This document shows, in pieces, positions 9,801 to 63,734 of a stretch of 64,000 nucleotides of DNA. Numbering within the stretch: the first letter of the stretch is position 1; every line of letters starts with the position of its first letter. The notes below the pieces were generated by a model. It was not told the origin of the DNA. It ran no database searches and was given only the letters and a program-made list of their open reading frames with translations. A program made the translations under genes and the position numbers. The stretch covers positions 271,230 through 335,229 of the forward strand of contig JBMORT010000002.1 of the NCBI GenBank assembly GCA_049319825.1. Reading direction: 5' to 3'. This DNA comes from Patescibacteria group bacterium (GTDB taxonomy: Bacteria > Patescibacteriota > Patescibacteriia > UBA11705 > DATKZF01).

Positions 9801-9803
9801 TTT

Positions 9804-15654: not shown

Positions 15655-16356
15655 ATGAAAATTGGCGGCATCCAAACGTTAACTTTGATCGATTATCCTG
15701 GCAAAGTGGCGGCGACTGTTTTTACTTTGGGTTGTAATTTTCGCTGCCATTTTTGTCATAATCCGGAGTTGGTCAATATCAAAAAAAAATCATGGACCAT
15801 GTCTTCGGCCAAGGTTTTTGAATTTTTAAAAAGTCGCGGCCAGTTTTTGGACGGCGTTTGCATTACCGGCGGCGAGCCGACAATTCATGCCGATTTCCTT
15901 AATTTTTTAAGTAAAATAAAAGCGCTCGGCTTGGCCGTTAAATTGGATACCAACGGATTGAATTTCCCGGCGCTGAAGCGGGCGATCGATCACCAGCTGG
16001 TCGATTATGTGGCCATGGATATTAAGGCGCCATGGGAAAAGTACCCGGTCATTGTGGGCGAACCGATCGAGGTCGAGCCGGTAAAAAAAAGCGCCGAGTA
16101 TCTTATGAACAGCGGGGTCGAATACGAGTTCAGAAGCACGGTGCTCCCGGCGCTTCACCCGCCGGCCGACATCATCGAAATGGCCAGGCAAATCAAAGGC
16201 GCGAAAAAATATTATTTACAACAGTTCAAACCTTTTGCTAAAATAGTAAATGATGACTACCGACAAGCCAAGTCATACACGCGTCAAGACTTGATTAAAA
16301 TAAAAAACAAAATTAAGAATTGGTTCGATACGGTGAGAATTAGGGAAAATATTTAA
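15655..16356 (+). CDS. nrdG: Anaerobic ribonucleotide reductase activating protein (radical SAM) NrdG
   Basis: CxxxCxxC radical-SAM motif GCNFRCHFCHNPE. 233 aa. Adjacent to nrdD. Confidence 0.85.
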   Translation: MKIGGIQTLTLIDYPGKVAATVFTLGCNFRCHFCHNPELVNIKKKSWTMSSAKVFEFLKSRGQFLDGVCITGGEPTIHADFLNFLSKIKALGLAVKLDTNGLNFPALKRAIDHQLVDYVAMDIKAPWEKYPVIVGEPIEVEPVKKSAEYLMNSGVEYEFRSTVLPALHPPADIIEMARQIKGAKKYYLQQFKPFAKIVNDDYRQAKSYTRQDLIKIKNKIKNWFDTVRIRENI

Positions 16357-31400: not shown

Positions 31401-34400
31401 TACCAAATGCATCAGTGGCGCTTGTTACGGGCCAAAGTCGTTGTTTGAAAACATCGGTCAACCGGCAGCGGATTCTTTTCCCGACGCCAAAATGTGCCGG
31501 GCATACCCGGAGCAAAATTCTCCATTGCCATTTTCCGCGATCTACGAAGTATATCCCTGGGCCGGAAAGAACGAGGTCAAATGGCAAAAGTATCGAAACG
31601 CCGAGTACCCATATATCGATAGCGAACGCGATGACAAGGATCAACGAGCGGAGATTGATTACGGCTGTCGCTATACCAATTATTCATACGGCAATAATCA
31701 AATCACTCTTCATGTGCCGCCGGGTGAATCGGTGCCGCCGGGCATTTGCTCCATCACGCGGCAATCATGCGCTTGCGGCGTGGTCACCGGACAAAACGGC
31801 GCGGAATATAAGGATTGTTCCAAGGGTTTTAATGAAGCTGGAGAAATCGTTTGCGATCAGAGCGAAACGTGTTTGGAGCGGGATAAAAGCATTACTGATA
31901 TTTATGGCTGGGAAGGCTATTGCCTCGAAGATGATTATTCGGTTTCGTTATATAATTCGGAAAGCGCGCATCCGTGCTTAACCTGGTATCCGGCGGATCA
32001 GGCGGCCGGATTAACTGACCGATATAATCAATATGCTCAAGCCGGTTATCAATCGGGTGATTTCCCATATTACTGCCTGACTTCAAGGCCGTATTTACAG
32101 GAAAAAGCTTATTTTTCCGGCGGAAACGGGCAAGGCTGGCTCAGGTGGCTGGTAATACCGCCCAGTGAAAAGATACAGGGCGAGTGCCATATGGATCAAG
32201 CAGGCCGATGGGAATTCTTCAATGAAATTTTGTATAGAATAATTGCCGATGAAACTGGATTTAGCGGCGGCAATCAGGCCAGCCTTGGCAATATCGCTTC
32301 ATCAATGGACAATCTTTTATCCGGAAAAGCAAAATCTTATGACACGTTGAGTGGTAATATTGATATCGAATTCCCCGACATTCGCAGCCGGTATTTGCAA
32401 TCGATGATGGCATACTATTTTTCCAATAAACTTTTGGTGATTGGTGAAAATCAGTTAACCGGCGAAAATAATATCAGCAAACAAAGTCAAGCTGATTATG
32501 CGCTCCGCACTTGTGGCGAAGGTTACTTCCCGGTATTTTCGCCATGCGACGACGGCAATGATGATTTTGCCGGTCTTCCGGGATATGGTTATAAAACCAC
32601 ATCGCCGGGTTTGACAATCGCCGCTGGCGTGTTGTGCGTGCCATACGGCTCGGTGATTGAAATTCCCGATTCGGAAATCGAAAAGTGGCGAGACAAGGTG
32701 CCCAATATCGATATGTTGCAAGGCGCACAGTGCGTTCCGCACTTTAAGCTGGGCGATTTGTTAAAGAAGGGTAGTATTAAAAATTCCTCCACCGATCAAT
32801 CATGCATTGCCGCTGATGGCACCTGGAATAATGGCGCTTGTTCGCCAATCCTAACCAATTATGAAATCGACGTGGACACGGTTTATGATTATGTGGTGGC
32901 GCAAAATAAAGTGGTTCCGGTGTATTCGCAAACGCCGCAAAGCAGCAAGGTGAATGTCCCCACGATTTTCAGCGGGCTGCTGGACATGGATGACCCATAT
33001 AATTATCAGCCTTTGGATAAAGCGCATCCGTTGACATTTTTTTACCTCAGTAAGGAGGACGTTAATTCCGGTTACTATTGGGGGTTGTGTTCCAATCAAA
33101 GCAATAACGAGTGCTCCGATAATAATTTCATGCCCGGCGACCAGCGTTGGCAAACCGTCCAGGCGATTCAAAGTAACGACGAACCCTCGGTCATTGACAT
33201 GAATTTTGATTTTATGACCCCGCTTTATCGTTATTGCGTCAAAACTCCTCAGGTGGCCGATGAAGGCAATGTTAACGTGGACGGCTTGGCCCAGCGGGGC
33301 ACCAATGAAGAATTTGCCGGAGACAGGCAATCGGTTGAATATGTTGAAAATTATTTACATGAGGGCAGCAATGAAGCGCCGCTGGTCGTGGACGTGGCTC
33401 TGGAAGATAAATATCTCAATCCGGCCGGCCAGACATTTGTCAGCGGGGAGATGCTGTGCGATAATGTGGCGGAAATTGAAATTGTCGGTGAAGGTGGCTT
33501 TGAAGATAAGGCCTGGACGAACCGAATGTTCAATACGTCCATATTAAAGAGAAATTTTGCCATCAACAGTCCCGATACTTTTGGATTCTATTATGATACT
33601 CCGCCGGGAGCCTATGGTCAGGTTGATGTTTTGCGCGGGAATTTGGGTGATTATATTAAATCCGATTCTTGCTATTATAACGAAGGAGGCAATTCCAGCT
33701 ATTTCAGCAATAACGCTTTGTACAACCCGCTGGTGGTTACCGATTTTTCCGCTGAAGATGCCCGGTACACTTATTGCCCGGATATTCAGGACACCACCAC
33801 GCTCCAATATAAAAATCAGGAACAGATAATCAATTCTCCCAAATCATACATGAAATACTCCATTGAGGGCGCGTCTTTCGGCAGTACCTCTTCTGCGTCA
33901 ACGAGCTACCCGATGCTTTCTTCTGCTTTAGAAAAATTCGAAAATTACAGCGCTTCGGAATTGGCCGCCCCGGGCAGTCAGACTGATCTGCATCGACTGG
34001 ACGAGCCTTTCAGCCGATTGTCATCTTTATTCGCTAAAGTTTTTAATGTTTACTCCTGGAATCCGGTAGAAAATAATTTTGATTTCTATAGAAATTTTTC
34101 GTATCAAGATGTTTCCGAAGATAAGGACATCAGCTATCAAACGGTCGTGGCCGATGGCTATCGCACCGTGCCGGTGGTGGCCGGTGTGCAGACGCTGGCT
34201 TCCGGAAAGTATCAAGCCGTCGGTGACACCATCACTCTGAAAACTCTGCATGAAAGCCGTACCAGCGGAATTGTTCGGGGATACGATGGCCAGTTATTGG
34301 TTCAGGCGCAGTTTTTCGGCTGGGCCGATAAAGACCATATGCCGATCAGGCAGGTGAGCATCGATTGGGGCGATCCTAATATATTCAAGCCCGGCCCGGA

Positions 34401-34938
34401 CGGTCAGTATAAAAATTATAAACCGATCTGCGCGGTCGATCGGAATGAAAGCTTGGATTATTGTGTGGAAGGCATACACGACGAGCAGTGCCGATCGATT
34501 GATGATTGCTCGGTCGGATCGTCGAATTGTGAAGGAGGAGGCGCTCCGAATTTCGGATCGATCCCCGATGCCTGCGCTCAGAGTTATTTTCAAAAACCGA
34601 ATTTTTATATTTGTTATGAAGGTGGAAGCAATTTGGCCAAGCCGGATGGGACTATCCCGATTTGTCCGGCCGGGTATCAAACAAACCCCGATTTGATCAG
34701 TGGCGAATTCATTGACGGCTGCTGGGATCCGGGATTCGAAAGCGGCATCGGCGCCTGCGTATTCCGCCCCGGAGCGCAGATAATTGATAATTGGGGATGG
34801 TGCAATGGGGATTGTTTTGGAGCAGGCAATGGATGTTATGAGGATCAACCATCAGATGCGCCATCTGCATTAAATCAATGTTCTGAAAGGGAAGCAGCAT
34901 TTACCAGATTTAATGGTGTTATTATAATTACACCTTAA
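25477..34938 (+). CDS. Giant (3153 aa) secreted Cys-rich surface protein, function unknown
   Basis: Single 9.46-kb ORF. N-terminal hydrophobic signal/anchor IILGVIVFICCGIFFQFCFWFVA. Very many Cys residues throughout. Start is 7 nt after the TSP3 gene. Confidence 0.8.
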   Translation: MNLRPKQKIILGVIVFICCGIFFQFCFWFVASKPANAQIGETALEAQLRSLREQGQENYRAFQEAVRRYEEKAQEEFGQRLKEGFIRTAAITLKNTLIYTIQQAGRQTMQYVATGQWGQGPMFWEQSFDYFKQTIVGAATQEMLDTLAYQLWSETGFDMCDPDVDVKLAIMYNLQLNLPNPQYELVAPRCDWRLVKNNWEGFYDEVRGQVKDAVGLTYAAMGAMQDSLDPKQNDFGIFLKALDQNFARQKEEYEAARDERLAPSKLKDQTSVVTGFVQTPSYVVETSVKSDWEAVLASRREELKTGEAVLAEIPETVLAAFIQSFGPQQFLVAFLNRVKSGLIKRSESYNPVQKVYEQKKSIEKVNTEVLTADFSFEPRSVSLIDEFVNCPSESNRNTPRGQNDCVLDRSFAEAVRRAALGEPLTLEQAIAQGLINDTLPFYGPQDKENNTPECYNRGFCYSNLQKLRKARIIPLGWEMAALKMAEEGRKTLREVINQFNNPNSPFYRLVDPGWILKEPSTVCRAEVYGPDVIGEGASSRSEVCSDYRSCVDELPSGECVGGYGYCAEEKRTWLLEGDSCDGQFAGCTNLYDRGGNQQSWVLNTLDSSGCDSSSVGCRQYSLWKDDGKVWTNSTLAEHSDSGYQRWIFLNKNIESLLCTPDNEGCTRFIRTAADLGSNLLINSGLEDADENGEIPGWQIMLDGGVTREIATSIDIVNSGAKSAYVQKDSAVSSIWQLTSDEISIVPKDYSRYYILSYYLYQTDQDIVAAGLQYKNYTGINTFNWADAVQVSSSYLDGIKNPDGSLNAASISTGIWQRHYVLVNLPPQTDDGRLIDRLRVAFNFGDGGSYYVDDLQIEEVFSPTTFALYAPYASTNADYLKQAPDYYNCYDEFPNNDAPECANFMPVCSAEAVGCERYTPTDGGAAQTAVVGRYNYCPAECVGYQSFSQSETFFEPLTFPVYFIPSTARTCEQENVGCETYTNLDVLAQGGEAINYFKQVKQCLKSDPESPHPDCATFYTWTGSGDSGYQITNYSLRDRDKDGQPDVTDPAKDAAECDADVYNFQLNPDCRQFYNQAGQISYHLISLTITCAEDCSPFRLEASYADLAAARAKCEPPIGNGTWDLTTNKCIYQIIPSEALTCPAAESGCREYKGNFSGDVEVLYQEDFEAGLGTWFDNASNKDISYSSESLNLGGHSMEIPSTVPAIYEPSADNSVPFSSGAQYSVSFWAKPDADLNTEDSSARLQVLLQTSYAGGGDSIPVGTLSYRGGDWNLYTATVNYTGPDAQLLRLTITNVYSAGDNSVYVDNIKISRVNQFQYLVKNSWSTPQICDTRLDGVDPLPQAMLGCREYSDRDGTLHYLRSFNNFCGDDVVGCEALIDTKNNREYQEKIYNPGIINVCEVPEIKSQQVTGGNCNLKMMTYFCNNSDVINNPTACINAGQESLEAFFSLLAGLIAGNNASEASLTALVCNALSIQEGYDYSWNVQLNACVKNNALDQFGVPADELVYRVVSEEMSCDADQKGCTAAGQAGFSYDQSIVEWYDTFFILDPDNLTGLLCSEASLGCEQFADSNKNIHFLKDPGLRYCEYRSDLAQAGWYEAGSEPPAPCKTWEPYQDGVKAVLPNYHPDYLLSNQDSTVLENTGWAASCPETQSACTAFIDPADKTSNYVGRTYYYKNNDKIDRDSCDGVVDPKEGCMLFQDTAAGEAKFSADATYFLNYLSDDPTAPFNLNNLSDSDLISLNDGTISKLTNNDYDWSYQSMRVLSPVSNISPKDEVEYSLLLNGGQQTISSVYQLISGDQDYRFTNDSNTVLKVKQDRQCSKWYSCLPSMAWDNANTQWVEVCELSILCDKYSRSGGSAYCSHAIVPGAESSTPLNENEYFTEAKYVDRQSTKFPFLNLYHDLYTPDYSGYAIYNQVPLQFLTAVDLADSYESLGQHFSLLAQFETAGACNTDADCASALSGQFIEAYGSAVQSTITKCISGACYGPKSLFENIGQPAADSFPDAKMCRAYPEQNSPLPFSAIYEVYPWAGKNEVKWQKYRNAEYPYIDSERDDKDQRAEIDYGCRYTNYSYGNNQITLHVPPGESVPPGICSITRQSCACGVVTGQNGAEYKDCSKGFNEAGEIVCDQSETCLERDKSITDIYGWEGYCLEDDYSVSLYNSESAHPCLTWYPADQAAGLTDRYNQYAQAGYQSGDFPYYCLTSRPYLQEKAYFSGGNGQGWLRWLVIPPSEKIQGECHMDQAGRWEFFNEILYRIIADETGFSGGNQASLGNIASSMDNLLSGKAKSYDTLSGNIDIEFPDIRSRYLQSMMAYYFSNKLLVIGENQLTGENNISKQSQADYALRTCGEGYFPVFSPCDDGNDDFAGLPGYGYKTTSPGLTIAAGVLCVPYGSVIEIPDSEIEKWRDKVPNIDMLQGAQCVPHFKLGDLLKKGSIKNSSTDQSCIAADGTWNNGACSPILTNYEIDVDTVYDYVVAQNKVVPVYSQTPQSSKVNVPTIFSGLLDMDDPYNYQPLDKAHPLTFFYLSKEDVNSGYYWGLCSNQSNNECSDNNFMPGDQRWQTVQAIQSNDEPSVIDMNFDFMTPLYRYCVKTPQVADEGNVNVDGLAQRGTNEEFAGDRQSVEYVENYLHEGSNEAPLVVDVALEDKYLNPAGQTFVSGEMLCDNVAEIEIVGEGGFEDKAWTNRMFNTSILKRNFAINSPDTFGFYYDTPPGAYGQVDVLRGNLGDYIKSDSCYYNEGGNSSYFSNNALYNPLVVTDFSAEDARYTYCPDIQDTTTLQYKNQEQIINSPKSYMKYSIEGASFGSTSSASTSYPMLSSALEKFENYSASELAAPGSQTDLHRLDEPFSRLSSLFAKVFNVYSWNPVENNFDFYRNFSYQDVSEDKDISYQTVVADGYRTVPVVAGVQTLASGKYQAVGDTITLKTLHESRTSGIVRGYDGQLLVQAQFFGWADKDHMPIRQVSIDWGDPNIFKPGPDGQYKNYKPICAVDRNESLDYCVEGIHDEQCRSIDDCSVGSSNCEGGGAPNFGSIPDACAQSYFQKPNFYICYEGGSNLAKPDGTIPICPAGYQTNPDLISGEFIDGCWDPGFESGIGACVFRPGAQIIDNWGWCNGDCFGAGNGCYEDQPSDAPSALNQCSEREAAFTRFNGVIIITP

Positions 34939-34961: not shown

Positions 34962-34996
34962 AACTCCTTGGATAGTTTTCCAAGGAGTTTTTTTTA
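34962..34996. terminator. Bidirectional terminator between convergent genes
   Basis: Perfect 11-bp stem aactccttgga(tagttt)tccaaggagtt. Flanked by an A-run upstream and a T-run downstream. Confidence 0.7.
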
Positions 34997-35668
34997 GTTT
35001 TTGATGTAAGAGAAAAGCTTGTCTGTCTCCTGAGACTTGTATCGAATGGAAATCTCAGTGTCTCCAAGCGCGATTGGACCTGAAGACCATTCAAGATCAG
35101 CAGGCTCGTAATATGCGAATAACCGAATTTCGGTCTCGCTGATTCTTTCCAGAGGCAGGCCTTCTTCAGCAGGATAGAACCCCACCACATAGATTCCGTC
35201 CTGAATGGGATCGTTCACGCGCTCTTCGACGTACACGTCGACATTGCGCGGTCCAGTTTCGTACTGGTCGGTCCGCACCCAAGTGCCCTCGAGCCATCGG
35301 TACTCTTCGAGCAGGTCAGCCGCGGTCTCCAGCGTGACCGGATCGAGATCCATGTCATACTCGTAGCAGATCTCGTCGGTCCACTGTTCGTACCCATTCA
35401 GCGTCAGGCCGACTTCATGGCAGCCGGCTTCGACATAGACCGTGCCCGGCGTGGTTTTGCCGGATTCGTTGTCGTCCACCCAGATCGTCGCTCCGGGCGG
35501 ATCACTTTCGAAGCTGAGCTTCACCGTTCCGGGTGGTCGGGTGGTGTCTTCTCCCGGACCGTCCGGCGAGATGATCGAATCGGGTTGATTGCCGATGCCG
35601 CCGCTCTGGTCGTCGCAGCCAACCATGAAAATGGCGATGAACACGAAGCTGGTGATGATGTACTTCAT
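34994..35668 (-). CDS. Lipoprotein with PEGA domain. High GC, about 60%.
   Basis: Lipobox in MKYIITSFVFIAIFMVGCDDQ. PEGA-like segment GATIWVDDNESGKTTPGTVYVEAGCHEVGLTLNGYEQW. Codon usage (GAC/GTC/TGC) differs from neighbouring core genes. Confidence 0.65.
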   Translation of the reverse strand: MKYIITSFVFIAIFMVGCDDQSGGIGNQPDSIISPDGPGEDTTRPPGTVKLSFESDPPGATIWVDDNESGKTTPGTVYVEAGCHEVGLTLNGYEQWTDEICYEYDMDLDPVTLETAADLLEEYRWLEGTWVRTDQYETGPRNVDVYVEERVNDPIQDGIYVVGFYPAEEGLPLERISETEIRLFAYYEPADLEWSSGPIALGDTEISIRYKSQETDKLFSYIKN

Positions 35669-35799
35669 GGTGTCCCTCCGGCGCCGGGATTCCCGTGAAT
35701 CCGCGGCAATCTAAAGTTGGTTTTTCCCGTGTTTTTTAAAGGACTGGGCAGTATACCCCAGAGAGGAGAATTTGTCAAGTCCAAGCCGTGTTTGCCTGC

Positions 35800-35890
35800 C
35801 AGTCCGCCTACGCCGCGGTTTCGGCGGACAGGCCGTAGCCTCCTGACAGCCGTAGCTTCAAGCGAAGGCTGTTGGGCGTAGGCTGGACGC
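35800..35890. repeat. Cluster of REP-like palindromes with GTAG/CTAC motifs next to the RayT-like transposase
   Basis: Outer inverted repeat gcctacgcc (35806-35814) and ggcgtaggc (35875-35883). Direct repeat gccgtagc at 35832 and 35849. Internal hairpins ccgc-ggtttcg-gcgg and cagcc...ggctg. Confidence 0.5.
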
Positions 35891-35964
35891 ATTGACCCCT
35901 CTCTACTTATATTGTATGAATAATTCTCAAATGTTGTCAATAGAAATTGTGGAAAATTATAAAA

Positions 35965-36534
35965 TTAATGAATTATTTGGTCCAATTCCCATTTGAGGGG
36001 ATTATTTAATATGTATTTTTGTTTGTTGTATAATTCTTTTTCATCCCGGATGATTCGATCGTGGAAACGGGGTTGCCAAAATGGTTCCCCGATTGTGTTT
36101 TGATATAAATTTATTTGTTTCGCGGAAAATGTTTTAAATCCACGGATTATTTCAGACAATAAATATCGTTTTTTCCCCGCGCGAATATCAATTGGGCCAT
36201 CGCCGTCCGTAGAGACAGGTTTGAAACCTGTCTCTACGGCGTCGCGCGGTCGGTCATTATCAATAAAAATTATTCCATGGATATGATTTGGCATAATAAC
36301 GAAATAATCCAAAACGCAATTGGAATAATGTTTTGGCAAATCATACCAACAATTTATGGCCAATTGTCCTTGTTTCGATAAACATACAAATCCATTTTTA
36401 ATGTATCCCAAAATATTTTTTTTGTTTTTCGTGCAGATCGTAATAAAATAATATGCCTCGGATGAATAATCCCAGCCTTTCAATCTTGTTGATTCGATTC
36501 TGTATTTATTTTTAAATAGCGTGTTATCAAACAT
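35965..36534 (-). mobile_element. IS200/IS605-like HUH tyrosine transposase of the REP-associated (RayT/TnpA_REP) type
   Basis: HuH motif MPNHIHGIIFI. C-terminal WQPRFHDRIIRDEKELYNKQKYILNNPLKWEL (catalytic Tyr context as in E. coli RayT). 189 aa. AT-rich gene flanked by GC-rich DNA and REP-like palindromes. Confidence 0.75.
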
Positions 36535-36785
36535 TGTTGTTCATTTTAATTTTTACGTCTCTATATTTTTATTATTTCATTTTGATCAATTTTCGTCCAT
36601 ACATTTTTGTCGGTGTTTTTCGACAATTTTTTTATTTTATTTTGGCCAATATTTTAAAACCTGACGAACGTGGATAACATAAGATTGCTTGATATCAATA
36701 TGGCGCTGCTACGCTGAGAATAGGGAGAGCGGTCGCTCTTTGACAACGGACAAGCGTCCATTTATCCATCAACTGGAGGTGCGTC

Positions 36786-37406
36786 ATGAAGCGCGTGAAT
36801 CGAAAAACGATCCTGGCTTGGTTGGTTGTGCTGCTTGCCGGCTGCGATCAGCGTGCAAACCATGTGTTTCACGGCGGCGGGCGGGGAGATGTCGGGCAGA
36901 CCGACTTGAATTTCAGCTTCGATCTATCCGAACGGGAAAGATCGGTGTTTGAAGGGGTGTCATTTGTCAAACCCGATGAGCTGTTCGACGTCAAGGTGAC
37001 CAAAGGGCAGATTGTTCTCAAAGATACGGACCGGGAAGTGCTCGTCTCGAGCGGACTCGCGCCGGACGACTACTATCTGCCCAATGGCTTGGTGAATGAT
37101 GAAAAGTACGCGGAGCAGTATGTGCTGATCACGCTTGAGGTGTTCGACTTTCGCGTCAACACGGAAAACGATTGGCCGCTGTTTTTTCAAGAGAACATGC
37201 CGGAAATCATTTCCGCGCGGCCGATCGAAAACCTGGCCGGCAATCCGGCGGTCGAGCCGACCGCGTTTGCTGGTATCGTACTCGGCAACCGAATCGCCTT
37301 GGTCGCCGTGGCCGATAAAGTCATCCTGTTGCGAATGCTCGTTTCGGCCAGAGACGAGGATTCGGCCAATCATTGCTTCGATCAAATCGTCATCAGCCTG
37401 AACTAG
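36786..37406 (+). CDS. Hypothetical lipoprotein (GC-rich)
   Basis: Lipobox LAWLVVLLAGCDQ. No recognised domain. About 58% GC. Confidence 0.5.
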   Translation: MKRVNRKTILAWLVVLLAGCDQRANHVFHGGGRGDVGQTDLNFSFDLSERERSVFEGVSFVKPDELFDVKVTKGQIVLKDTDREVLVSSGLAPDDYYLPNGLVNDEKYAEQYVLITLEVFDFRVNTENDWPLFFQENMPEIISARPIENLAGNPAVEPTAFAGIVLGNRIALVAVADKVILLRMLVSARDEDSANHCFDQIVISLN

Positions 37407-37421
37407 GAAGGGAGGCCGGTC

Positions 37422-39782
37422 ATGAAAAGGATCAGCGTCATCTGGGCCATTTGTGCCATTCTCGACGTCGGCGGCACCGCTCGCGCCGAGCAAGTGATTC
37501 TCGATGTGCCATTCATCAGCCAGGTGCCGCCCGGCGACTGGAACAATACCAGAAATTGCGGTCCGACCGCGGCATTAATGCTGGCTTCATATTATCTCAA
37601 TGATCAGCCGACTTTGGAGGACATCAAAGCTATCGATGATTGGCTCTATGCCCATCAAATCATTTATCCGCAATATGGCATTGATTTATACAATGGCAAT
37701 TACACCGATTTCGGCGATTTGGCCGATTTGCTGGATGATTATTTCGGTTTGGGCGCGTCGGAAAAAGTATATGCTCAGTCTGAAGATTATATCAAACAGC
37801 AGATCAGGGCAGGCAATCCCGTGATCGTGGCCGTGCGGCTGAATATGCTGCCCGGCGGCCCCGGACATTTTATGCTGGTAATCGGCTTTGACGACACCGG
37901 CGTTATTGTTCATGATCCCGGCCACAGCGCTGAAAATGGGGGACTGGCCAAACATTATGACTTCAATAAATTTCGATCTTCTTGGGCCAGCTGGAGCAAT
38001 GCCAGCATGCATTTGACGCGATTCGTCACCTGGCATCCGAACGGCACGCTGATCAAAAAAGACGCTGATCCCAAAATTTACATGTTGCTTGACGGCTTTA
38101 AGCATCACGTGAAAAATTGGGAAGTGTTTTTGGCCCACGGATTCGATTCGAATAAAATCGTGGCCGTGTCTCAAACGGAGTTGGACTGTTATGCCGAATC
38201 ATGGGCCGTGGACTGGAAGCCTTATCGCCGGGTATTTGGCAATGCCGGCGATGGCAATTATTATTTGATGGAAAAAATGGACGCCAGCCATGCTGGCTGC
38301 GCCATTTACCGTTTCGCGTCTGACTTCGCGGCCGAGAGTTGGGGCAATTATTTACCCGATGTCAGCTGGGTGAACGCGTCCGACGCGGCCGATTATTTGA
38401 CCAATTGCGATCTGGGCGCTGATCTTTTCCTGCGCGATGGCAGTTTGGTCAAGCCCGAACCGGCGCTGGCCAATTTCGGCTATGGACAGGGCGCGGTGTT
38501 TGTCATTCACGATAACGGATTGGCCAGCGCTTTCAGCGATTGGCAGACATTCGAGCGGATGAATTACCATGCCGATGAAATTTGGTCGGTATCGGCCGCG
38601 GAGTTTCTTTCGGCCATCAGGGATTTCGATGTCCATATCTCTCAGTATGATTTGAATCGCTGCGGCGGCGGAGATCTGGGCAGCGGATCGAATTGCGAAG
38701 AAGATGCCATGTACGAATCATACGCCGGTCCGGAAAACACCGTTAATGTCGGCCAGTGCCTCGCCGAGGTCAAGCAATGCTTTGGCGGCCGCTTGTACGT
38801 GATCAGTCGCCAGGTTTTGCCAGAAGCGGAAATCGAAGATGGACTGGACAATGATTGTGACGGTGAGACAGATGAGGAAACCGGGCCGCTTAATAGCCCC
38901 GATGATCCGGAACCAGAACCGGAAGAAGTTTGCTCGAGCGGCCAAATCATCAGCTCATATTCGGGCGATATTTCAACTTACGGCATCGGTGCTTGCCGGC
39001 CGAGGATCGAGCAGTGTCAGAACGGCCAGTGGGTGCTGATTCAGCAGGAAATTTTGCCGCAGGCCGAGCAAAATGACGGACTGGACAACGATTGCGACGG
39101 CCTGCTAGACGATGGCTGGAACCAATATCCCGACCCGCCGCAGGACGACGAAGAATGCGTTGACGGGGAGATGAAAAACATCTACAGCGGACCGATCGCC
39201 ACTTTCGGCGTCGGCATTTGCCGGCCGGCTGTGGAGGAATGCGTTGACGGTTACTGGGAATTGGCACAGCCTGAAATTCTGCCGCAGATCGAGGTGCTGG
39301 ATGGACTGGACAACGATTGCGACGGCTTGGCCGATGAGAACCTGGAGCCGGAAGCAGATCCGGAGCCGGAGCCGGAACCGGATCCCAATGAAGAGAATCC
39401 GATCACGCCAAGCGGCAATGTCTGGGCGGCCAAGTCTTGCGGCCAATATTGCTTGGCGTTTGCCGGCGATTATTTGGCCGGTCATCCGCCCGTCGCCGTT
39501 CTGGTCGGAGATTTCCCGGGTATTGATTGGAACTATCAAAACGGCATTTCCATGCTGATTGCCTCGGACAGTTACTATCATATCAGTCTGATCGGCGCGC
39601 CGGCCGGCATTTATCGGGTGACTTACACCTCGGTTTCCGGCGTGTGGGCTCAGTACGGAGACGACACGCTCGATGATGTCGGACCGTTTCGCTGGTGCGG
39701 TTTTGACGGCAATACTCATACCTGCAGCATTAAGTTCCAGCTGACCGCTGGCGGACAGGTTTTGCCGGCGGGCAATAATTAA
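37422..39782 (+). CDS. Secreted protein: N-terminal papain-fold C39-like peptidase domain (Peptidase_C39_2-type) plus three C-terminal MopE-like putative metal-binding repeats
   Basis: Signal peptide. FISQVPPGDWNNTRNCGPTAALMLASYY (Cys in N-C-G-P context). Three repeats of about 60 aa: C..G.....YSG.I.T.G.G.CRP..E.C..G.W.L.Q.EILPQ.E..DGLDNDCDG..DE. About 58% GC. Confidence 0.6.
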   Translation: MKRISVIWAICAILDVGGTARAEQVILDVPFISQVPPGDWNNTRNCGPTAALMLASYYLNDQPTLEDIKAIDDWLYAHQIIYPQYGIDLYNGNYTDFGDLADLLDDYFGLGASEKVYAQSEDYIKQQIRAGNPVIVAVRLNMLPGGPGHFMLVIGFDDTGVIVHDPGHSAENGGLAKHYDFNKFRSSWASWSNASMHLTRFVTWHPNGTLIKKDADPKIYMLLDGFKHHVKNWEVFLAHGFDSNKIVAVSQTELDCYAESWAVDWKPYRRVFGNAGDGNYYLMEKMDASHAGCAIYRFASDFAAESWGNYLPDVSWVNASDAADYLTNCDLGADLFLRDGSLVKPEPALANFGYGQGAVFVIHDNGLASAFSDWQTFERMNYHADEIWSVSAAEFLSAIRDFDVHISQYDLNRCGGGDLGSGSNCEEDAMYESYAGPENTVNVGQCLAEVKQCFGGRLYVISRQVLPEAEIEDGLDNDCDGETDEETGPLNSPDDPEPEPEEVCSSGQIISSYSGDISTYGIGACRPRIEQCQNGQWVLIQQEILPQAEQNDGLDNDCDGLLDDGWNQYPDPPQDDEECVDGEMKNIYSGPIATFGVGICRPAVEECVDGYWELAQPEILPQIEVLDGLDNDCDGLADENLEPEADPEPEPEPDPNEENPITPSGNVWAAKSCGQYCLAFAGDYLAGHPPVAVLVGDFPGIDWNYQNGISMLIASDSYYHISLIGAPAGIYRVTYTSVSGVWAQYGDDTLDDVGPFRWCGFDGNTHTCSIKFQLTAGGQVLPAGNN

Positions 39783-39947
39783 ATTCAAAAGGGATTATTC
39801 ATAATAAATCCCTTTTTTTATTTAGGCAGTCGCCAATCAGCCGGAGGCAATGTCCAGGCCATTATGCGCAGGCTGGCACACCGCAGCGGGTGCTATGAGT
39901 TTTTTAAAAAAAATTTAAAAGAGCCTCGTCGGCTCTTTTTTGTAAAA

Positions 39948-40244
39948 TTATTTTTTATCCTTGTTCTTTATGGGAATCACATGAACGAATTTAACGTCTT
40001 CAAGATTGCCGGTAAATTTTTTTATTTTTTTATGGGAGAATGAAACATTGCCGTCAGTCGAGGCGAACAAAGTGTCGTCTTTGCCCGACATGACGTTTTG
40101 TCCGGCGCGGAATTTGGATCCTCGTTGCCGAATCAAAATATTGCCGGCCTTGGCAAATTCACCTTCGAATAATTTAACTCCCAGACGTTGTGCATTGGAA
40201 TCTCGGCCCAGTTTAGTACTGCCGGCCGCTTTTTTATGTGCCAT
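39948..40244 (-). CDS. rpmA: 50S ribosomal protein L27 (with short C-terminal extension), not adjacent to rplU
   Basis: [61 protein letters not shown] matches L27 throughout. Confidence 0.9.
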
Positions 40245-40384
40245 ATTGGGTTAGATTAAAGAAATAGTATTAAAGTTGAAGCTTCTAAGCTGCAAGCTGT
40301 AAATTATTCTAGCTCAATATTTGAAAAGAGTCAAGCAATTGACACATTTGACAGAAATGGCCGAATAAAATAGAATTAAATCAT

Positions 40385-41212
40385 ATGAAAAAGCTATTTT
40401 TTGCCATATTTATAGTAATTATTTTATCCGCCTGCGCCAACCAACAAGTTGATGACGTTGTTTTGGAAACACCGATTCGGCCTGCCGCGACAGTTGATTT
40501 AAATAGGGCGACACCTGAAACATTAGTTGATGTCGAGCCGCCGGCCACATCGCCCGATTCTTTGATGGCTAAGCCCAGACAGGTCCCATCAACGTTTGAC
40601 CAAGACGTGCTGTTCGCTTCGCAGGCGCCTTTTGGCAATTGGGAATTGCCATATCAAGAGGCCTGTGAAGAAGCCAGTCTGATCATGGCTTATAAATATT
40701 TCGCCAAGCAGGAGCTTGATAAAAACATCATGGATAAAGAAATCAATAAATTGGTTGACTGGGAATTGGGCCAATTTGGCTATTATACCGATACCAATCT
40801 GGATGAAGTCACATACATGGCTGAACAATATTTCGGTTTGGATGTTGAAATTTCGGAGAAGGCCGAGGTTGAATATTTTAAAGAGTTGATTTCCAGCGGC
40901 TATCTTTTAATTGTGCCCGCATCAGGCCGAGATTTGGATAATCCGAATTTTACTTCACCCGGACCGATATTTCATATGCTAATCGTCCGCGGCTATGATC
41001 GAAATCAATTTATTACCAACGACCCCGGCACCAGAAAAGGGCTAAAGTTTAAGTATCATTATAATAATTTGATCAGCGCCATTCATGATTTGATAGTGGA
41101 AAACAGCGAACAGTTCCGGCCGTATGAATTAAAAGATATGCCCGACAGCCAAAAATTGATAAAAATGCGCAGCGGCCCCCAGCGATTTTTAATAATCAAG
41201 GGATTAAAATAA
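40385..41212 (+). CDS. Lipoprotein with C39-like peptidase (Peptidase_C39_2-type) domain
   Basis: Lipobox ILSACANQ. FASQAPFGNWELPYQEACEEASLIMAYKYF, where the Cys lies in a Q-x-x-C-x-x-A-S context typical of this papain-like family. Followed by terminator ttggct-caaata-agccaa tttttt. Confidence 0.6.
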   Translation: MKKLFFAIFIVIILSACANQQVDDVVLETPIRPAATVDLNRATPETLVDVEPPATSPDSLMAKPRQVPSTFDQDVLFASQAPFGNWELPYQEACEEASLIMAYKYFAKQELDKNIMDKEINKLVDWELGQFGYYTDTNLDEVTYMAEQYFGLDVEISEKAEVEYFKELISSGYLLIVPASGRDLDNPNFTSPGPIFHMLIVRGYDRNQFITNDPGTRKGLKFKYHYNNLISAIHDLIVENSEQFRPYELKDMPDSQKLIKMRSGPQRFLIIKGLK

Positions 41213-41248
41213 ATAAAATTGGCTCAAATAAGCCAATTTTTTATTTTA

Positions 41249-41277
41249 TTGACATTTACAATGAAAATTGTTAAGAT
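41249..41277 (+). promoter_or_regulatory. Near-consensus sigma70 promoter (TTGACA-17-TAAGAT) for the 41326 gene
   Basis: ttgacatttacaatgaaaattgttaagat. RBS aaggagg lies 5 nt before the TTG start. Confidence 0.55.
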
Positions 41278-41325
41278 TTAGTTTCCGTGCAGTTTGACAA
41301 TTAAAACCAAGCAAAGGAGGATGCC

Positions 41326-43176
41326 TTGGGAAAAACAAGAAAAATCGAACCAGATCAACGTGATGTCGGCGTGCTTGCCAAGCAGCCCGGATTTTCCGAG
41401 CCCGGCACAGCCGTAGAATCGCCGACCGGATTTTCCCCGGAGGGGACGGTTTTGGATCACATTGACGATTTGGATGAATACCGCGGTGCGGCCTCGGTCG
41501 TGGATAACGACGCGGCCAGGAAAACGCCGTACGGTGAAGTGATCACTCCGGGGACAAAGGAATGGGACCACGTGGTCGAGGTGCATACCCGGGATACTGT
41601 CCCCGGCGACGGATCGGTCAGGCCGGAAAGTATTCTGCAGGTCCATCTGGATCGGCTGGAACTGGAGCCTCAAAACCGCAGAGAGATTTACGCGGTTTGT
41701 CAAATCTGGTTCCAAAATCCATTGGTGTTCAAAGGACTGGAATCTCATGTGCTGGAAAAATTTCAGCGTTTCGACGCTGAGGGCCTGGCCGCGTCTTTTC
41801 GCGATCAGATCGCCCAAGTGATGAATGGATTGCAGCAGCGCTTGCCCCCAAAGGCCGAACCGAAGGCAGCGGTGCCGGCGCCAAGGCCGGCAGCGGAGCC
41901 GAAACCGCCGGGAAATGAGCTCGATTGGGCGCTGGAAGATTTGCGCTCCGATTCCTTCGGGGCTTTGAAGCGTCTGTATTTGATCTTCCAAAATTCAACC
42001 AAGAAGCACTTGTTCGCCGGCCGTGAAGCCGACGTGATCGCGGCAATCCGATCGCGTGATTTTCAGAAACAAGATGAACAAGAATTGGCTGCTCGTCTGA
42101 CGGCACAACTCCAAGGAAAGGAGGCCCCCATGCCCCAAGACGTGAAGAGGGAGAATGAAAGGCCAGTGGCTGCACCGATTTCGGCGCCGCGCCTGGGGGG
42201 CCGCCGCACCGGCGAGTCCGCCGCCGCCCAGCCGCCGATCGAAAGCCAGACTCATGTGATGGCCGCGGCGGCCATTGCCAGTATCGAAGGGGCAGTGCCG
42301 GCACAGGCGCTAGATTGGAACGCCTGGAAGAAATCCGCGTTCCAAACGTGGGTTGATCTCGCCTTCAAGCGATATTTCTACGACTGGATTGACGCCCTGG
42401 CCGAACTGGTGCGCGCGACCGAGGTGCCGCGGCTGATCGAATTGAACGAGTATCTGTATCGCGCGGTCGATCGCCCGTGGCCCGGCCTGACTGTCGCCAA
42501 CTTCGGCAACGTTCGAGTTTACTTGCGCAGTGATCGACTCCGAGCCGATGACGGTTCATCGTCACTCGAGCTCAGCATTGATTTTGTCCGCGCGGCCGCG
42601 GCTGATCCGCCGCTCTCCCGCAAGGAAGATCAGGACAAACTCAAGCAGCTCTACAATTGGATGCTGGATCGTCTGGATATTCTCTTCGGCATGAAGCGGA
42701 CTCCAGCCGGGTTCAGCGAGTTTTTCTCGGGGATCAACCCGTCATTCGAGCAGGTGGTCGAAGAGTTTTGGGGCGACATCTGGAGCCTGTTCGGCGCCGC
42801 CTGCCGCGAGCTGACGGCGAACGAATTGGTGCCGGAAACCGAAGTCGATACCAGCTTCTGGCGGCAGGTGGAAGTGCTGTCCGAAACATTGCCGCGCGGC
42901 AGCTGGGTCGGGTTTCCGTTCCTGCGAGTCGGCGAGCTTTGTTTGTACTACTTCCGCGGCCGCTTGACCGTGATCCAGTGCGATCACAGCCTCGAAATGA
43001 GCCTGATTGCCGATCATGGCGCGGATGAAGCGGAAAAAGCGCTGCACGAATTGGCCGCGTCGGTCATCATGAAACTGCCGCTGAGCGTCGAAGCGCTCCA
43101 GCGTCAAATCTCCGCCATGAATCAACCGGACATGGTGGAAGAATTGCTGAATCATGCGCTCGAAAGTGAAAAATAG
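41326..43176 (+). CDS. Hypothetical cytoplasmic protein (616 aa). Largest member of a 3-gene paralogous family of unknown function, about 60% GC.
   Basis: TTG start with aaggagg RBS. Shares WPGLTVANFGNVRVYL and a C-terminal LPLSVEALQRQI motif with the two downstream paralogs. No signal peptide or known domain recognised. Confidence 0.6.
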   Translation: MGKTRKIEPDQRDVGVLAKQPGFSEPGTAVESPTGFSPEGTVLDHIDDLDEYRGAASVVDNDAARKTPYGEVITPGTKEWDHVVEVHTRDTVPGDGSVRPESILQVHLDRLELEPQNRREIYAVCQIWFQNPLVFKGLESHVLEKFQRFDAEGLAASFRDQIAQVMNGLQQRLPPKAEPKAAVPAPRPAAEPKPPGNELDWALEDLRSDSFGALKRLYLIFQNSTKKHLFAGREADVIAAIRSRDFQKQDEQELAARLTAQLQGKEAPMPQDVKRENERPVAAPISAPRLGGRRTGESAAAQPPIESQTHVMAAAAIASIEGAVPAQALDWNAWKKSAFQTWVDLAFKRYFYDWIDALAELVRATEVPRLIELNEYLYRAVDRPWPGLTVANFGNVRVYLRSDRLRADDGSSSLELSIDFVRAAAADPPLSRKEDQDKLKQLYNWMLDRLDILFGMKRTPAGFSEFFSGINPSFEQVVEEFWGDIWSLFGAACRELTANELVPETEVDTSFWRQVEVLSETLPRGSWVGFPFLRVGELCLYYFRGRLTVIQCDHSLEMSLIADHGADEAEKALHELAASVIMKLPLSVEALQRQISAMNQPDMVEELLNHALESEK

Positions 43177-43219
43177 TATTAATCTCCTATCAAAATAGGA
43201 GATTTTTTTCTTTTTATTC

Positions 43220-43248
43220 ATGTTTCGTGTTGACAGCCGCAATTGAAT
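43220..43248 (+). promoter_or_regulatory. Sigma70 promoter TTGACA-17-TATAAG
   Basis: ttgacagccgcaattgaatttgatataag. RBS aaggagg at 43284-43290. Confidence 0.55.
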
Positions 43249-43295
43249 TTGATATAAGAAAATGATCATTGACATTAAATATCAAGGAGGCAGCA

Positions 43296-44165
43296 TTGAC
43301 AAAGCAGTGGCCGTACCCATCTTTACTGACCAATATTTCTATGCCTCACCAGTGGCCGCGGGCGTCGGTTACGCCGAAAGAGTTTGAAAATTGGCAGGAA
43401 CAAGTTTTGGCCGTGATGAGGAAGACCTGCTGGGATCCTCATTATCGTCAATTCCATGGCGCGCTGATTGTCGTACTGCAAAGAGTGGAGTTCTGGGAGC
43501 TTTTTTCCGATTTGATTTCGATTTATCTTCGGGCGGAATTACCTTTCCCGGGTATGCCTATTTTGGAGGTCGCCAATGCCAAGGTGTTTTTGACCCACAA
43601 CACGATTAATATTGTTCGCGAGGGTGAAAAAAAGGAAATCGCGCTTTTACCCGATGAACAGAAAGGAATTTCCGAGTTTTCAGCTTGGCTTCGTGAATCC
43701 CCCATGGGTTTGTCCGCGGTAAAAACGACATCGGAACAAATTCGAACGCTGATTCAAGAGCGCCTGAAGCCCGCCGATCATTACCTGATTTGTTTGCGGG
43801 AAGTGATCAGGCGGTTCGTCGCTTCATTCATTGAATTTTATATGCAGCGGCCTCCGGCGTTTGATGAAATGTTCGGCTTGATTGAACATGAAGAAGGGTT
43901 TTGGCGTTATGGCATTATCCTCGGCAACCATGAGGGGCTGAAGATTTATTGGAAGAAAGATGAATTGATCGTAATTTTGCCGTCGATTCAAGAGAAAGGC
44001 GCGCCACCGGAGATCCTGTCTATTGCTGACGCTGATTTTGAGGACAGGCTGACGGAAGCTTTGAAACAAACCGCGCCGCAGGCGATATTCGCTCTGCCCA
44101 TGAGTATTGAAGAAATTCAGCAAAACCTGATTAAAAACAACAATGATCCGACTTTTATGTCCTAA
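43296..44165 (+). CDS. Hypothetical protein, paralog 2 of the family. Start reassigned to TTG 43296; the ORF track gives 43269.
   Basis: The RBS aaggagg (43284-43290) lies inside the ORF-track N-terminus, so the start 5 nt downstream is preferred. Motifs SIYLRAELPFPGMPILEVANAKVFL and C-terminal LPMSIEEIQQNL. Confidence 0.55.
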   Translation: MTKQWPYPSLLTNISMPHQWPRASVTPKEFENWQEQVLAVMRKTCWDPHYRQFHGALIVVLQRVEFWELFSDLISIYLRAELPFPGMPILEVANAKVFLTHNTINIVREGEKKEIALLPDEQKGISEFSAWLRESPMGLSAVKTTSEQIRTLIQERLKPADHYLICLREVIRRFVASFIEFYMQRPPAFDEMFGLIEHEEGFWRYGIILGNHEGLKIYWKKDELIVILPSIQEKGAPPEILSIADADFEDRLTEALKQTAPQAIFALPMSIEEIQQNLIKNNNDPTFMS

Positions 44166-44203
44166 TGAGCAGCCGCTTAAAATAACGGCTGTTTTTTATT
44201 TAT

Positions 44204-44232
44204 TTGACAATCTTTTCTTTTATGGATAAAAT
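44204..44232 (+). promoter_or_regulatory. Sigma70 promoter TTGACA-17-TAAAAT
   Basis: ttgacaatcttttcttttatggataaaat. The ORF-track start at 44204 is the -35 hexamer itself. RBS aggagg at 44259-44264. Confidence 0.55.
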
Positions 44233-44269
44233 GAGTTTTAAAATATTAACCAGAAGGCAGGAGGCAAAG

Positions 44270-45184
44270 ATGGCCGAGGTCACCGTCGCCAGCTGGGAAG
44301 GCCTTCAGTTTGCTCCGATTTTGGAGCATCTGAATGCGCTTTTCCCGGAGCAGGAAAAAGTGATCATCGATCCCAATATTGATCTGAAATTCAAAGAATG
44401 GCTGGAAGCGCTGACCAATCATGTTGTCCAGCGTTGCTGGCCGCAGTTTTTTAAAAAATGGTATCAAACGCTGCTCATCGCGATTGCCAGAGATGATGTC
44501 CGGCGGCTGGCTTCAAGCTCAATGTCCATTTACTTGAAGGCCGGTAAATGCGATAAATGGCCCGGGATAAAAGTCGCCGAACATGGCGTGATCAACGTAT
44601 TCTTATCTCGAGCGAAATTCGTCGTTATCGCGGGCAAAGATGACAAGCACTATCCGATTTTGCCCAAACAGGAAAGTGACAGCGTTTTAAGGTTCGCTCA
44701 GGGATTGATGGCGCTGCATCCGGTATTGGGCATGCGGCTCGACCCGCAGGAGCTTGCCGACTATATCTTGACCAACAACTCTTCGCATGGTTTATTGGCC
44801 GATTGCTGGCCAGATATTGTCGCGAATTTCGTCTCGGCCGTAATCGATACCAAAATATATGAAATTCCGGCCATCGCCGAGGTTGAAGCGCTCAGAACCG
44901 AGACAGGCAAAAAGCCGACTCCGTTTCTGTTGGCCACGGCCGGAAATTTCAAGATTTATATTCGCAGCGGCGTTTTGGTGGTGGTCAATGAAAAGAAAAT
45001 CGAAGGACCGACATTCGAGCCGACCAATCCTGAAGCGGTACAGGAACTAAGCGATTTACTGTCTAATTACGCCGAGCTGCTATTTTCCGTTCTGCCGATT
45101 ACCGTCTCGCAAGTCAAGCAGGCTCTGCATTCGCTCAATCCCTTGCCCGAAGAAACCTCTGCCGTGGCCGGGGAATCAAATTAA
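44270..45184 (+). CDS. Hypothetical protein, paralog 3 of the family. Start reassigned to ATG 44270.
   Basis: Motifs SIYLKAGKCDKWPGIKVAEHGVINVFL and C-terminal LPITVSQVKQAL align with paralogs 1 and 2. RBS 5 nt upstream. Confidence 0.55.
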   Translation: MAEVTVASWEGLQFAPILEHLNALFPEQEKVIIDPNIDLKFKEWLEALTNHVVQRCWPQFFKKWYQTLLIAIARDDVRRLASSSMSIYLKAGKCDKWPGIKVAEHGVINVFLSRAKFVVIAGKDDKHYPILPKQESDSVLRFAQGLMALHPVLGMRLDPQELADYILTNNSSHGLLADCWPDIVANFVSAVIDTKIYEIPAIAEVEALRTETGKKPTPFLLATAGNFKIYIRSGVLVVVNEKKIEGPTFEPTNPEAVQELSDLLSNYAELLFSVLPITVSQVKQALHSLNPLPEETSAVAGESN

Positions 45185-45287
45185 TGCCCTCTTAATAAAG
45201 CGGGCTTTTTGTTTTGACTGAAATCTTCGGATTTGCTATACTAAATCAACAGCCAAATGGAATTTTATAAATTAAAATATTTCATAT

Positions 45288-53205: not shown

Positions 53206-53583
53206 TTAAATTTTGTCAGCGTGGCTGTGAAAGATCAGTAGTTTAAATAATACCGTCAAGTTTTCCTGCTGGCTTCCGGTCGTCTGGCGATGCAAGTCAG
53301 AGACGGCAGTGGCCAGATAAGGAAATTGTTCCAGCAAATGATCGACAGCGGCATCGAAGTCAATATCGCCCTCATTAAGCGCTCGGACCTTTGGATGGTC
53401 CTCTCTGCAGGCGACGAACGAATCGTCGATCAGGATGTTTCCGAGCAGCATGATGAGCAGAAATCGATCCATAATGCCCAGCTGGGCATGCTGATCGATG
53501 AATGATTGAATAAATCCGGTGACGATCGGATTTAGAGCGATCCATTCTCGCGCTCTTTTGGGGATGATGGCCATGGCGATCAT
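53206..53583 (-). CDS. Hypothetical protein
   Basis: ORF only. Confidence 0.3.
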   Translation of the reverse strand: MIAMAIIPKRAREWIALNPIVTGFIQSFIDQHAQLGIMDRFLLIMLLGNILIDDSFVACREDHPKVRALNEGDIDFDAAVDHLLEQFPYLATAVSDLHRQTTGSQQENLTVLFKLLIFHSHADKI

Positions 53584-62896: not shown

Positions 62897-63214
62897 ATGA
62901 CCGGTTTTTACCTAAAATTGACGCGCGCGCCGGATAAATCGTCGGAGGTCCATGTAAAACTGGTCGGCTTGGACGAGGTTGAAGGAATTATATTGAAAGA
63001 CCCTGAATTAAAAGAAATTTTATTCATTTTCAAATCAAATGATCGGGAAATCGATATCGCCAGGGGATTTGCCGGACGCGGTTGGCGAGCTTTAGAAAAA
63101 CGACAATTGGATGTTTCTGAGGAATTTATGCGCGCCGCCCGGTTTTTTCTCAAAGATAGAAAAGCCCTCGAAGACCTTTGGGAAATTGAAAATAATAAAA
63201 GCGTGTCTTCATAA
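62897..63214 (+). CDS. Hypothetical small protein (105 aa)
   Basis: ORF with strong RBS. No motif recognised. Confidence 0.35.
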   Translation: MTGFYLKLTRAPDKSSEVHVKLVGLDEVEGIILKDPELKEILFIFKSNDREIDIARGFAGRGWRALEKRQLDVSEEFMRAARFFLKDRKALEDLWEIENNKSVSS

Positions 63215-63356: not shown

Positions 63357-63734
63357 ATGGTTGCCGCAAGAGCTCCGGATTACCTTGCGAATGCGACAAC
63401 AAGACCGATTCTTGAGCAGAATCAATGTCCTCGTCCGATTCGCCGCGAAATTCGGAGGCCGACAAGACAGATTTCTCGTATCAGGGTTAGGTTTGAAAAC
63501 TGCCATTTTATCGTGATTGTCGAAGTGGGAGCCACTCAGTTGCATACTCAGCTCAATGCTTATAAAAAAGTGGCGGGTGAAGCCTTTTTGAACAAAAATT
63601 CTGCCCTGCTTTGTTCAGTGGTCAATGCCATGATGAAAATCGTCTTGAAACTTCCGGAAAACGAGGCTGAAGCGTACTGGGTGCTGATTTGCGCCTATCT
63701 TCAGGAATTAAGACAGCTGTCCAAGGCCGCTTAA
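63357..63734 (+). CDS. Hypothetical protein (125 aa)
   Basis: ORF with aaggagg RBS. Confidence 0.35.
   Translation: MVAARAPDYLANATTRPILEQNQCPRPIRREIRRPTRQISRIRVRFENCHFIVIVEVGATQLHTQLNAYKKVAGEAFLNKNSALLCSVVNAMMKIVLKLPENEAEAYWVLICAYLQELRQLSKAA

Follow-up and report, generated by a model that had tools for sequence, protein, structure and literature searches.

Catalogues of uncharacterised, lineage-specific gene families of the FESNov type exist (PMC10849945). Orphan families of this kind in the Patescibacteria or candidate phyla radiation (CPR) are restricted to uncultivated lineages, have no Pfam or NCBIfam model, and are kept under purifying selection in a genomic context that is itself conserved. 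The same properties are found in an array of three tandem open reading frames (ORF1 to ORF3, 41326 to 45184) in a 64,000-nucleotide stretch of a Patescibacteria group bacterium genome (assembly GCA_049319825.1, contig JBMORT010000002.1, positions 271,230 to 335,229), which is referred to here in its entirety as the window. Beyond what is typical of generic orphan families, the family resolves into a repeated module of ~130 amino acids (aa), four orthogroups and a monocistronic cassette structure. It is best described as a narrowly distributed new orphan family that cannot be filed under an existing kind, because it has no sequence or fold match to anything known. The array itself is an old, clade-conserved set of duplicated expression cassettes.

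A second point of comparison is provided by bacteria that make little use of Shine–Dalgarno (SD) sites, where strong SD sites are found in a small, conserved group of genes and are lacking in the housekeeping genes. The SD-led rpsU of Bacteroidota is an example. The window shows the same kind of partition, and in contrast to rpsU, its SD-led genes are non-ribosomal and uncharacterised. Among Parcubacteria, about half are reported to lack the anti-SD motif (PMC9297842).

The Three Paralogs

All three genes lie on the + strand and were found where the first-pass annotation of this DNA had placed them: ORF1, the long paralog (41326..43176, 616 aa, TTG start), ORF2, the position-3 paralog (43296..44165, 289 aa, TTG start), and ORF3, the position-4 paralog (44270..45184, 304 aa, ATG start). 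The proposal that they are tandem paralogs is upheld by pairwise BLASTP, which gives significant and collinear similarity (E 1e-13 to 3e-4). ORF2 and ORF3 share 21% identity over 262 aa (E = 1e-13), residues 325–599 of ORF1 align with ORF3 (E 7e-7), and ORF1 matches ORF2 with an E of 3e-4. The matching part of ORF1 is its C-terminal ~280 residues, and its N-terminal ~320 aa form an extra region compared to the other two paralogs. As judged from their sequences, the three ORFs are anciently diverged, collinear tandem paralogs. The shared motifs that had been listed for them were largely recovered. WPG..V....V(F/Y)L is present, with FPG in ORF2, as is the C-terminal LP.(S/T)V/I, whereas ORF1 reads EYLYRA where ORF2 and ORF3 have SIYL(R/K)A. 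A GC content above that of the core genes had been ascribed to the whole array, but only ORF1 is clearly GC-rich (58%); ORF2 (47%) and ORF3 (50%) are close to the window mean of ~47%.

The public gene calls differ from these ORFs at two starts. P0001 begins 16 codons upstream of the ATG at 44270 and is 320 aa long, compared to 304 aa for ORF3, and P0002 begins at an internal ATG and comprises 249 aa, compared to 289 aa for ORF2 when read from the TTG at 43296. Both public calls appear to use wrong starts, since the starts given here fit the SD spacing and the N-termini of the orthologs better. The TTG start of ORF2 is further supported by an N-terminal YPSLL motif that is shared with P0006.

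A Family Confined to One Clade

The statement that the paralogs have no characterised relative is confirmed by profile searches, which gave no match to a known family. In Pfam, NCBIfam, PHROGs and PADLOC, no match to any of the three proteins reached or approached the curated threshold. A HMMER profile of the three paralogs, run exhaustively against 1.84 billion cluster representatives, recovered 18 proteins at E<1e-3, i.e., the three window genes and 15 others, in forms of ~300 aa and ~560–640 aa. When all 18 members were compared with Pfam (E<=1), no family was matched by more than one of them. The ten clusters that were checked have 1–3 members each and were seen on 1–4 contigs. When 5.8 billion proteins were searched by word index, the only matches apart from the window paralogs themselves were two long homologs, P0018 and P0019. 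The public annotation of one window paralog is 'hypothetical protein'. Among the 1.84 billion representatives, no homolog was found outside one small Patescibacteria clade, to which the family thus appears confined.

A scan of the GTDB species representatives yielded one carrier locus, L014 (CAYPKD010000007.1). Against the hidden Markov model (HMM), the paralog ORFs of L014 gave the same scores as those of locus L002. The L014 record is labelled 'uncultured Gammaproteobacteria bacterium'; the locus matches that of the Patescibacteria L002, and the label is probably wrong.

A Duplicated Module with a Probably New Fold

A module profile detects exactly two ~130-aa modules in each of the three proteins and no further family module elsewhere in the window. 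On the + strand, they are located at 42301-42684 and 42685-43125 in ORF1 (module HMM 7e-25 and 2e-30) and, by the same HMM, at 43368-43703 and 43716-44144 in ORF2. In ORF3, the first module spans aa 36-152 (44375-44725), and the second, together with a terminal LPxT helix, spans aa 153-292 (44726-45145). Alignment of the two halves by hhalign gave a probability of 97% (E 7.6e-11, 111 columns), and this profile–profile match identifies the core as an internal tandem duplication of the module. The half-size paralog that is present in relatives corresponds to one module plus the terminal helix.

An AlphaFold2 (AF2) model of ORF3, built from the 18-sequence alignment, reached a predicted local distance difference test score (pLDDT) of 88.2 and a predicted template-modelling score (pTM) of 0.76. 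In the modelled module, a long helix is followed by a second one, a three- to four-stranded beta meander and another helix, and this arrangement occurs twice in ORF3. The final helix, with which each of the proteins ends, starts at the only invariant residue of the family, the proline of 'LPx(S/T)'. In the model of ORF1 (pLDDT 66.6), aa 1-98 are disordered and include two short conserved motifs, FSxxGTV and AARKTPYGE. They are followed by two small helical bundles (aa 100-172 and 198-263) with a linker rich in Pro and Ala between them, by a disordered linker (aa 266-317) that includes APRLGGR, and by the C-terminal double module. The soluble family proteins are acidic (isoelectric point (pI) 4.5-6.7). 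In agreement with the cytoplasmic location that had been assigned to the three paralogs, neither a signal peptide nor a recognisable domain was found in them, nor any hydrophobic segment of membrane-span length.

With a fold match defined as Foldseek E<=1e-3 or a template-modelling (TM) score >0.5 to a confident model, the ORF1 and ORF3 models had no match in the PDB or BFVD (best E 0.1 and 3e-3, TM<0.2). The sub-threshold matches to ThcOx, uL6 and a sliding clamp (TM<0.2) are regarded as noise. PDB searches with whole-protein and module profiles returned only a borderline match (E 0.005) to SSO0352 (6iqc), which we take to be a PDCD5-like DNA-binding protein. The resemblance concerns the C-terminal 60 residues around 'LP(I/L)T.EELKQ.L', a segment that is modelled as a strand plus helices in the family. 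It was judged spurious, as it overlaps a beta strand predicted by AF2 and was not recovered by Foldseek. On the basis of these models, the fold of the module is probably new.

The conserved columns of the family alignment are nearly all aromatic or aliphatic. Across the family, no conserved cysteine or histidine, no conserved catalytic residue and no conserved polar column was found. The almost exclusively hydrophobic or aromatic nature of the conserved positions argues against an enzymatic role.

Expression Cassettes and SD Sites

The suggestion that the paralogs are independently expressed is substantiated by a predicted promoter, SD site and terminator for each gene, all on the + strand. 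The ORF1 promoter, TTGACA-17-TAAGAT (41249..41277), has a TG upstream of the -10 hexamer (extended -10) and comes directly after the terminator at 41215-41240, which belongs to the C39_2 lipoprotein gene upstream. An SD site, AAGGAGG (41314..41320), follows 5 nt before the TTG start, and the gene ends in the intrinsic terminator AATCTCCTAT-caaa-ATAGGAGATT followed by T7 (43181..43211). For ORF2, the corresponding elements are TTGACA-17-TATAAG (43230..43258; TTGACA-17-TATAAA in the orthologs), AAGGAGG (43284..43290), again 5 nt before the TTG start, and the intrinsic terminator CAGCCGcttaaaataaCGGCTG followed by T6 (44170..44197; fold dG -12.4 kcal/mol). ORF3 has the promoter TTGACA-17-TAAAAT (44204..44232), with 11/12 consensus matches, AGGAGG (44259..44264) 5 nt before the ATG start, and a terminator-like hairpin with a T-run (45186..45215), after which the nifU promoter, TTGACT-17-TATACT (45214-45242), follows directly.

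The promoter pattern that had been claimed, TTGACA-17-TA(A/T)(A/G)AT, holds for all three genes in its -35 element and spacer and for ORF1 and ORF3 also in the -10 hexamer; the TATAAG of ORF2 falls outside it because the final T is missing. The ribosome-binding sites are as had been described, with AAGGAGG or AGGAGG exactly 5 nt before each of the three starts. Near-consensus promoters are also found upstream of the adjoining housekeeping genes (40348, 45214). Thus, it is not the promoters that distinguish the array but the SD sites.

The layout is shared by relatives. In the orthologs of the long paralog in L002, L006, L011, L012 and L017, TTGACA-17-TAnnAT is located 53-72 nt from the start, which is also preceded by a conserved AAGGAGG or AGGAGG. 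Across eight loci, almost every family gene is preceded by TTGACA, a 16-18 nt spacer and a TAnnnT-like hexamer, at a distance to the start of mostly 36-72 nt and up to 90 nt, and has AAGGAGG before its start and a hairpin with a T-run downstream. Many paralogs (L002, L006, L011, L015, L017; window 43181-43204) even have a common terminator stem, ATCTCCTA-loop-TAGGAGAT, which includes SD-like and anti-SD-like strings and is consistent with the duplication of whole cassettes. The distant relative L021 has only one such cassette, with the same promoter-SD-terminator layout. An Rfam scan of the whole window gave no RNA family and thus no known leader element.

Most probably, the array originated by whole-cassette duplication, which would explain why every copy carries its own signals: a complete cassette would have been duplicated and its signals then kept under selection. 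The duplicated unit would be a complete monocistronic cassette, in which a sigma-70-type promoter is followed by a leader of 36-90 nt, AAGGAGG, the coding sequence and an intrinsic terminator.

Most genes of this genome had been reported to have weak SD sites, and this is borne out by the 37 gene starts tabulated in the window. Strong sites, defined as at least 5 nt matching AGGAGG (GGAGG or longer), occur at six of them, all at 35-45 kb, and there is one weaker case (GAGGT). The six SD-led genes are ORF1, ORF2, ORF3 and the genes for a PEGA protein, a 206-aa lipoprotein and a large C39_2 protein. In the window (34994-45184) and in L002, L006, L011, L012, L015 and L017, the SD-led genes have AAGGAGG 5-7 nt before the start. 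No SD site is present in the A/T-rich leaders of the genes for L27 and the small C39_2 protein or of nifU, iscS, ftsW, murD and mraY. This split is kept in all eight loci examined. Three small ORFs outside this region, 53206-53583(-), 62897-63214(+) and 63357-63734(+), encoding 125, 105 and 125 aa, also have AGGAG at SD spacing. They have no Pfam match and may be additional members of the SD-led class.

Conservation of the Locus

The array is embedded in a conserved neighbourhood, with the order giant surface protein, PEGA(-), 206-aa lipoprotein, large secreted C39_2, L27(-), small C39_2 lipoprotein, array, nifU_N, nifU, iscS, ftsW(-), murD(-) and mraY(-). All family members with retrievable flanks, in related Patescibacteria, occupy the same slot, with the small C39_2 lipoprotein gene on one side and nifU on the other. 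The proximity to C39_2 peptidase genes seen in the window is conserved in these relatives. The neighbourhood is syntenic in at least six related genomes with a GC content of 35-47%, and synonymous divergence among the syntenic genomes is saturated.

The arrays of L002, L006, L011 and L012 have four members in a fixed order: first the long form with 585-641 aa, then a half-size member with 170-204 aa and finally two of ~300 aa. The window genome has no half-size gene and a gap of only 120 bp between ORF1 and ORF2, and the half-size gene is considered to have been lost here. In a neighbour-joining (NJ) tree, the proteins group by position (long, position 3, position 4) and not by genome, which places the duplications before the divergence of the carrier genomes. 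Between L002 and L006, the ratio of non-synonymous to synonymous divergence (dN/dS) is 0.11-0.25 for the paralogs, at 59-76% aa identity, compared to 0.07-0.11 at 83-90% identity for L27, both C39_2 genes and the lipoprotein gene, and 0.20 for PEGA. The paralogs therefore evolve about twice as fast as most of their neighbours, and these values mark them as real genes under purifying selection. Spurious ORFs are ruled out by dN/dS in combination with the confident AF2 fold.

The history of the slot was surveyed in a metagenome collection with the small C39_2 protein as anchor, and 80 loci were annotated. The backbone lipoprotein-C39_2-L27-C39_2 ... nifU-iscS-ftsW-murD is widespread in related Patescibacteria, and among the surveyed loci the family is carried only by the closest relatives (small C39_2 identity >=59%). 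In the outgroups L026, L028, L033, L043, L064 and L070, the slot contains an SD-led prs (ribose-phosphate pyrophosphokinase; Pribosyltran_N 1e-29) and an Rrf2/IscR-type regulator (Rrf2 7e-33). It is essentially empty in L049 and L085. L021 (763-kb contig; 8798-15698) has five unrelated genes plus a single 364-aa family member, which groups with the long form. The array-carrying genomes have no Rrf2 at this position. The distribution identifies the array as a clade-level gain or innovation at a variable site rather than a recent acquisition.

The first-pass annotation had regarded the genes as acquired, and in the sense of a recent event this is contradicted by the synteny, by the position-specific orthogroups, by purifying selection and by the lack of an outside homolog that could have served as donor. 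The same evidence bears on the idea that the array is mobile or phage cargo. Each prophage 'moron' gene likewise forms a unit of its own, flanked by a near-consensus promoter and an intrinsic terminator, and recently acquired cassettes of this kind, perhaps moved by the RayT-like transposase, would account for the separate promoters and terminators, for SD sites in an SD-poor genome, for the 58% GC of ORF1 and for the nearby Y1/HuH transposase-like gene (35965-36534). However, the array is chromosomal, syntenic and old, its neighbours are L27, C39_2, NifU, IscS, FtsW and MurD, and it has no PHROGs or BFVD match and no homolog outside the clade among the 1.84 billion proteins. The SD and GC offsets are kept in relatives and are not decaying. 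A tRNA scan of the window found none, and thus no tRNA integration site. An origin as a horizontal island or prophage moron is therefore largely refuted and can be given hardly any credence.

The position of the array directly upstream of nifU, where it always ends, could point to regulators or accessory factors of NifU-IscS iron–sulfur (Fe–S) assembly that replace the Rrf2/IscR of the outgroups, in which Rrf2 occupies the slot. The weak PDB match to the DNA-binding SSO0352 would agree with this, had it not been discounted on structural grounds. Each array gene is terminated before nifU, however, and nifU has its own promoter. The paralogs lack a helix-turn-helix, Rrf2 or other DNA-binding domain match, and cysteine or histidine residues conserved throughout the family are missing. 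As the whole region is syntenic, the adjacency to nifU carries little information. With neither a conserved cysteine nor a DNA-binding domain, a role in Fe–S assembly or as an IscR replacement was rejected as very unlikely.

The paralogs had also been proposed to be immunity or effector-chaperone-like partners of the neighbouring secreted proteins, i.e., of the C39_2 peptidases, the lipoproteins or the PEGA protein. The adjacency to secreted genes is indeed conserved, and the paralogs share their strong SD sites and slightly higher GC content only with the PEGA, 206-aa lipoprotein and large C39_2 genes. Secretion chaperones are small, acidic alpha/beta proteins, and the modules, as small acidic alpha/beta units, loosely resemble them. 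Yet the outgroups keep lipoprotein-C39_2-L27-C39_2 although their slot is empty or contains prs and Rrf2, which shows that both C39_2 genes are independent of it. The array genes are separate predicted transcription units, and neither co-transcription nor strict co-occurrence with a secreted partner gene was found. No immunity, chaperone or defence family was matched, nor any such fold. Both C39_2 peptidases have signal or lipoprotein leaders and would act outside the cytoplasm, so that they create no obvious need for an immunity protein inside it. A partnership of this type is thus not supported by similarity or by the outgroup gene content, and it is considered distinctly improbable.

Proposed Function of the Paralogs

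The paralogs may be non-enzymatic cytoplasmic scaffold or adaptor proteins that assemble as subunits of a hetero-oligomer. This role is inferred from the lack of catalytic residues, the pseudo-symmetric two-module bodies and the joint retention of non-redundant paralog lineages, and it is possible rather than probable. The long member would serve as a docking arm, via its disordered regions with conserved short motifs, and the separate promoters would allow the amount of each subunit to be set on its own. In a genome where initiation at other genes is SD-independent, the strong SD sites would ensure that the paralogs are translated. In combination, orphan paralog cassettes and a scaffold or adaptor function provide the best explanation as a whole, one that we hold tentatively and rank just short of probable.

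Several observations weigh against this explanation. The half-size member is absent from the window and only one member is present in L021, indicating that the paralogs need not form a complex of fixed stoichiometry. Promoters and terminators of their own could fit paralogs that work separately just as well, the roughly twofold evolutionary rate compared to the neighbours also fits diversifying binding proteins, and the functional part is inference only. The main alternative is therefore a set of independent, fast-diversifying binding proteins with different ligands or partners, e.g., host-derived molecules in an episymbiotic lifestyle. In addition to the separate expression units and the fast protein evolution, the variable copy number (1, 3 or 4) would be in line with such proteins. 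Conversely, they are predicted to be cytoplasmic with no export signal, the paralog lineages and their order are kept across genomes, and dN/dS is well below 1. Independent binding proteins are on balance unlikely, while the other rival explanations are weaker still.

The scaffold or adaptor explanation can be extended to a more specific proposal, in which the array encodes the subunits of a new clade-specific cytoplasmic assembly of the novel ~130-aa module fold, within an SD-led regulon that acts at the level of translation. The SD-led set, i.e., the paralogs, PEGA, the lipoprotein and the large C39_2, would then use a translation route distinct from the SD-independent initiation of the rest of the genome, in a lineage that is SD-poor or variable in its anti-SD. 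This extended proposal is speculative and, taken as a whole, rather improbable.

Genes Flanking the Array

The transposase-like gene at 35965-36534(-) encodes a 189-aa IS200/RayT-like Y1 protein with the HuH motif MPNHIHGII and a GC content of 34%; its Pfam Y1_Tnp match is below threshold (E 9e-4). L006 has a shorter ORF at this position, with flanking sequence that encodes a similar C-terminal motif, and L012 has a 230-aa ORF. The large secreted C39_2 protein (37422-39782) contains three Cys-rich repeats that end in DGLDNDCDG and represent metal-binding motifs of the MopE type (Pfam Cu-binding_MopE, 4.6e-10). The stop of the lipoprotein gene and the start of this gene are 15 nt apart and flank the SD site, and the two genes are therefore probably co-transcribed. 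The window also contains two giant ORFs, 876-7691 (2271 aa) and 25477-34938 (3153 aa). The latter has a CBM_4_9 carbohydrate-binding domain and a 3210-aa counterpart in L002/L003; the counterparts in L006 and L012 are shorter.

Implications

Orphan families are common in Patescibacteria and this one is limited to a handful of metagenomic lineages, which calls for restraint. It nevertheless offers concrete and testable features in its internal-duplication architecture, its cassette-wise amplification and its conserved split in SD usage. This split would provide a tractable case for the partitioning of translation initiation in bacteria in which the anti-SD is variably present. If the proposed explanation is correct, the cell biology of Patescibacteria, of which very little is understood, would gain a new protein module or fold and possibly also a cytoplasmic structure of several subunits that is new.

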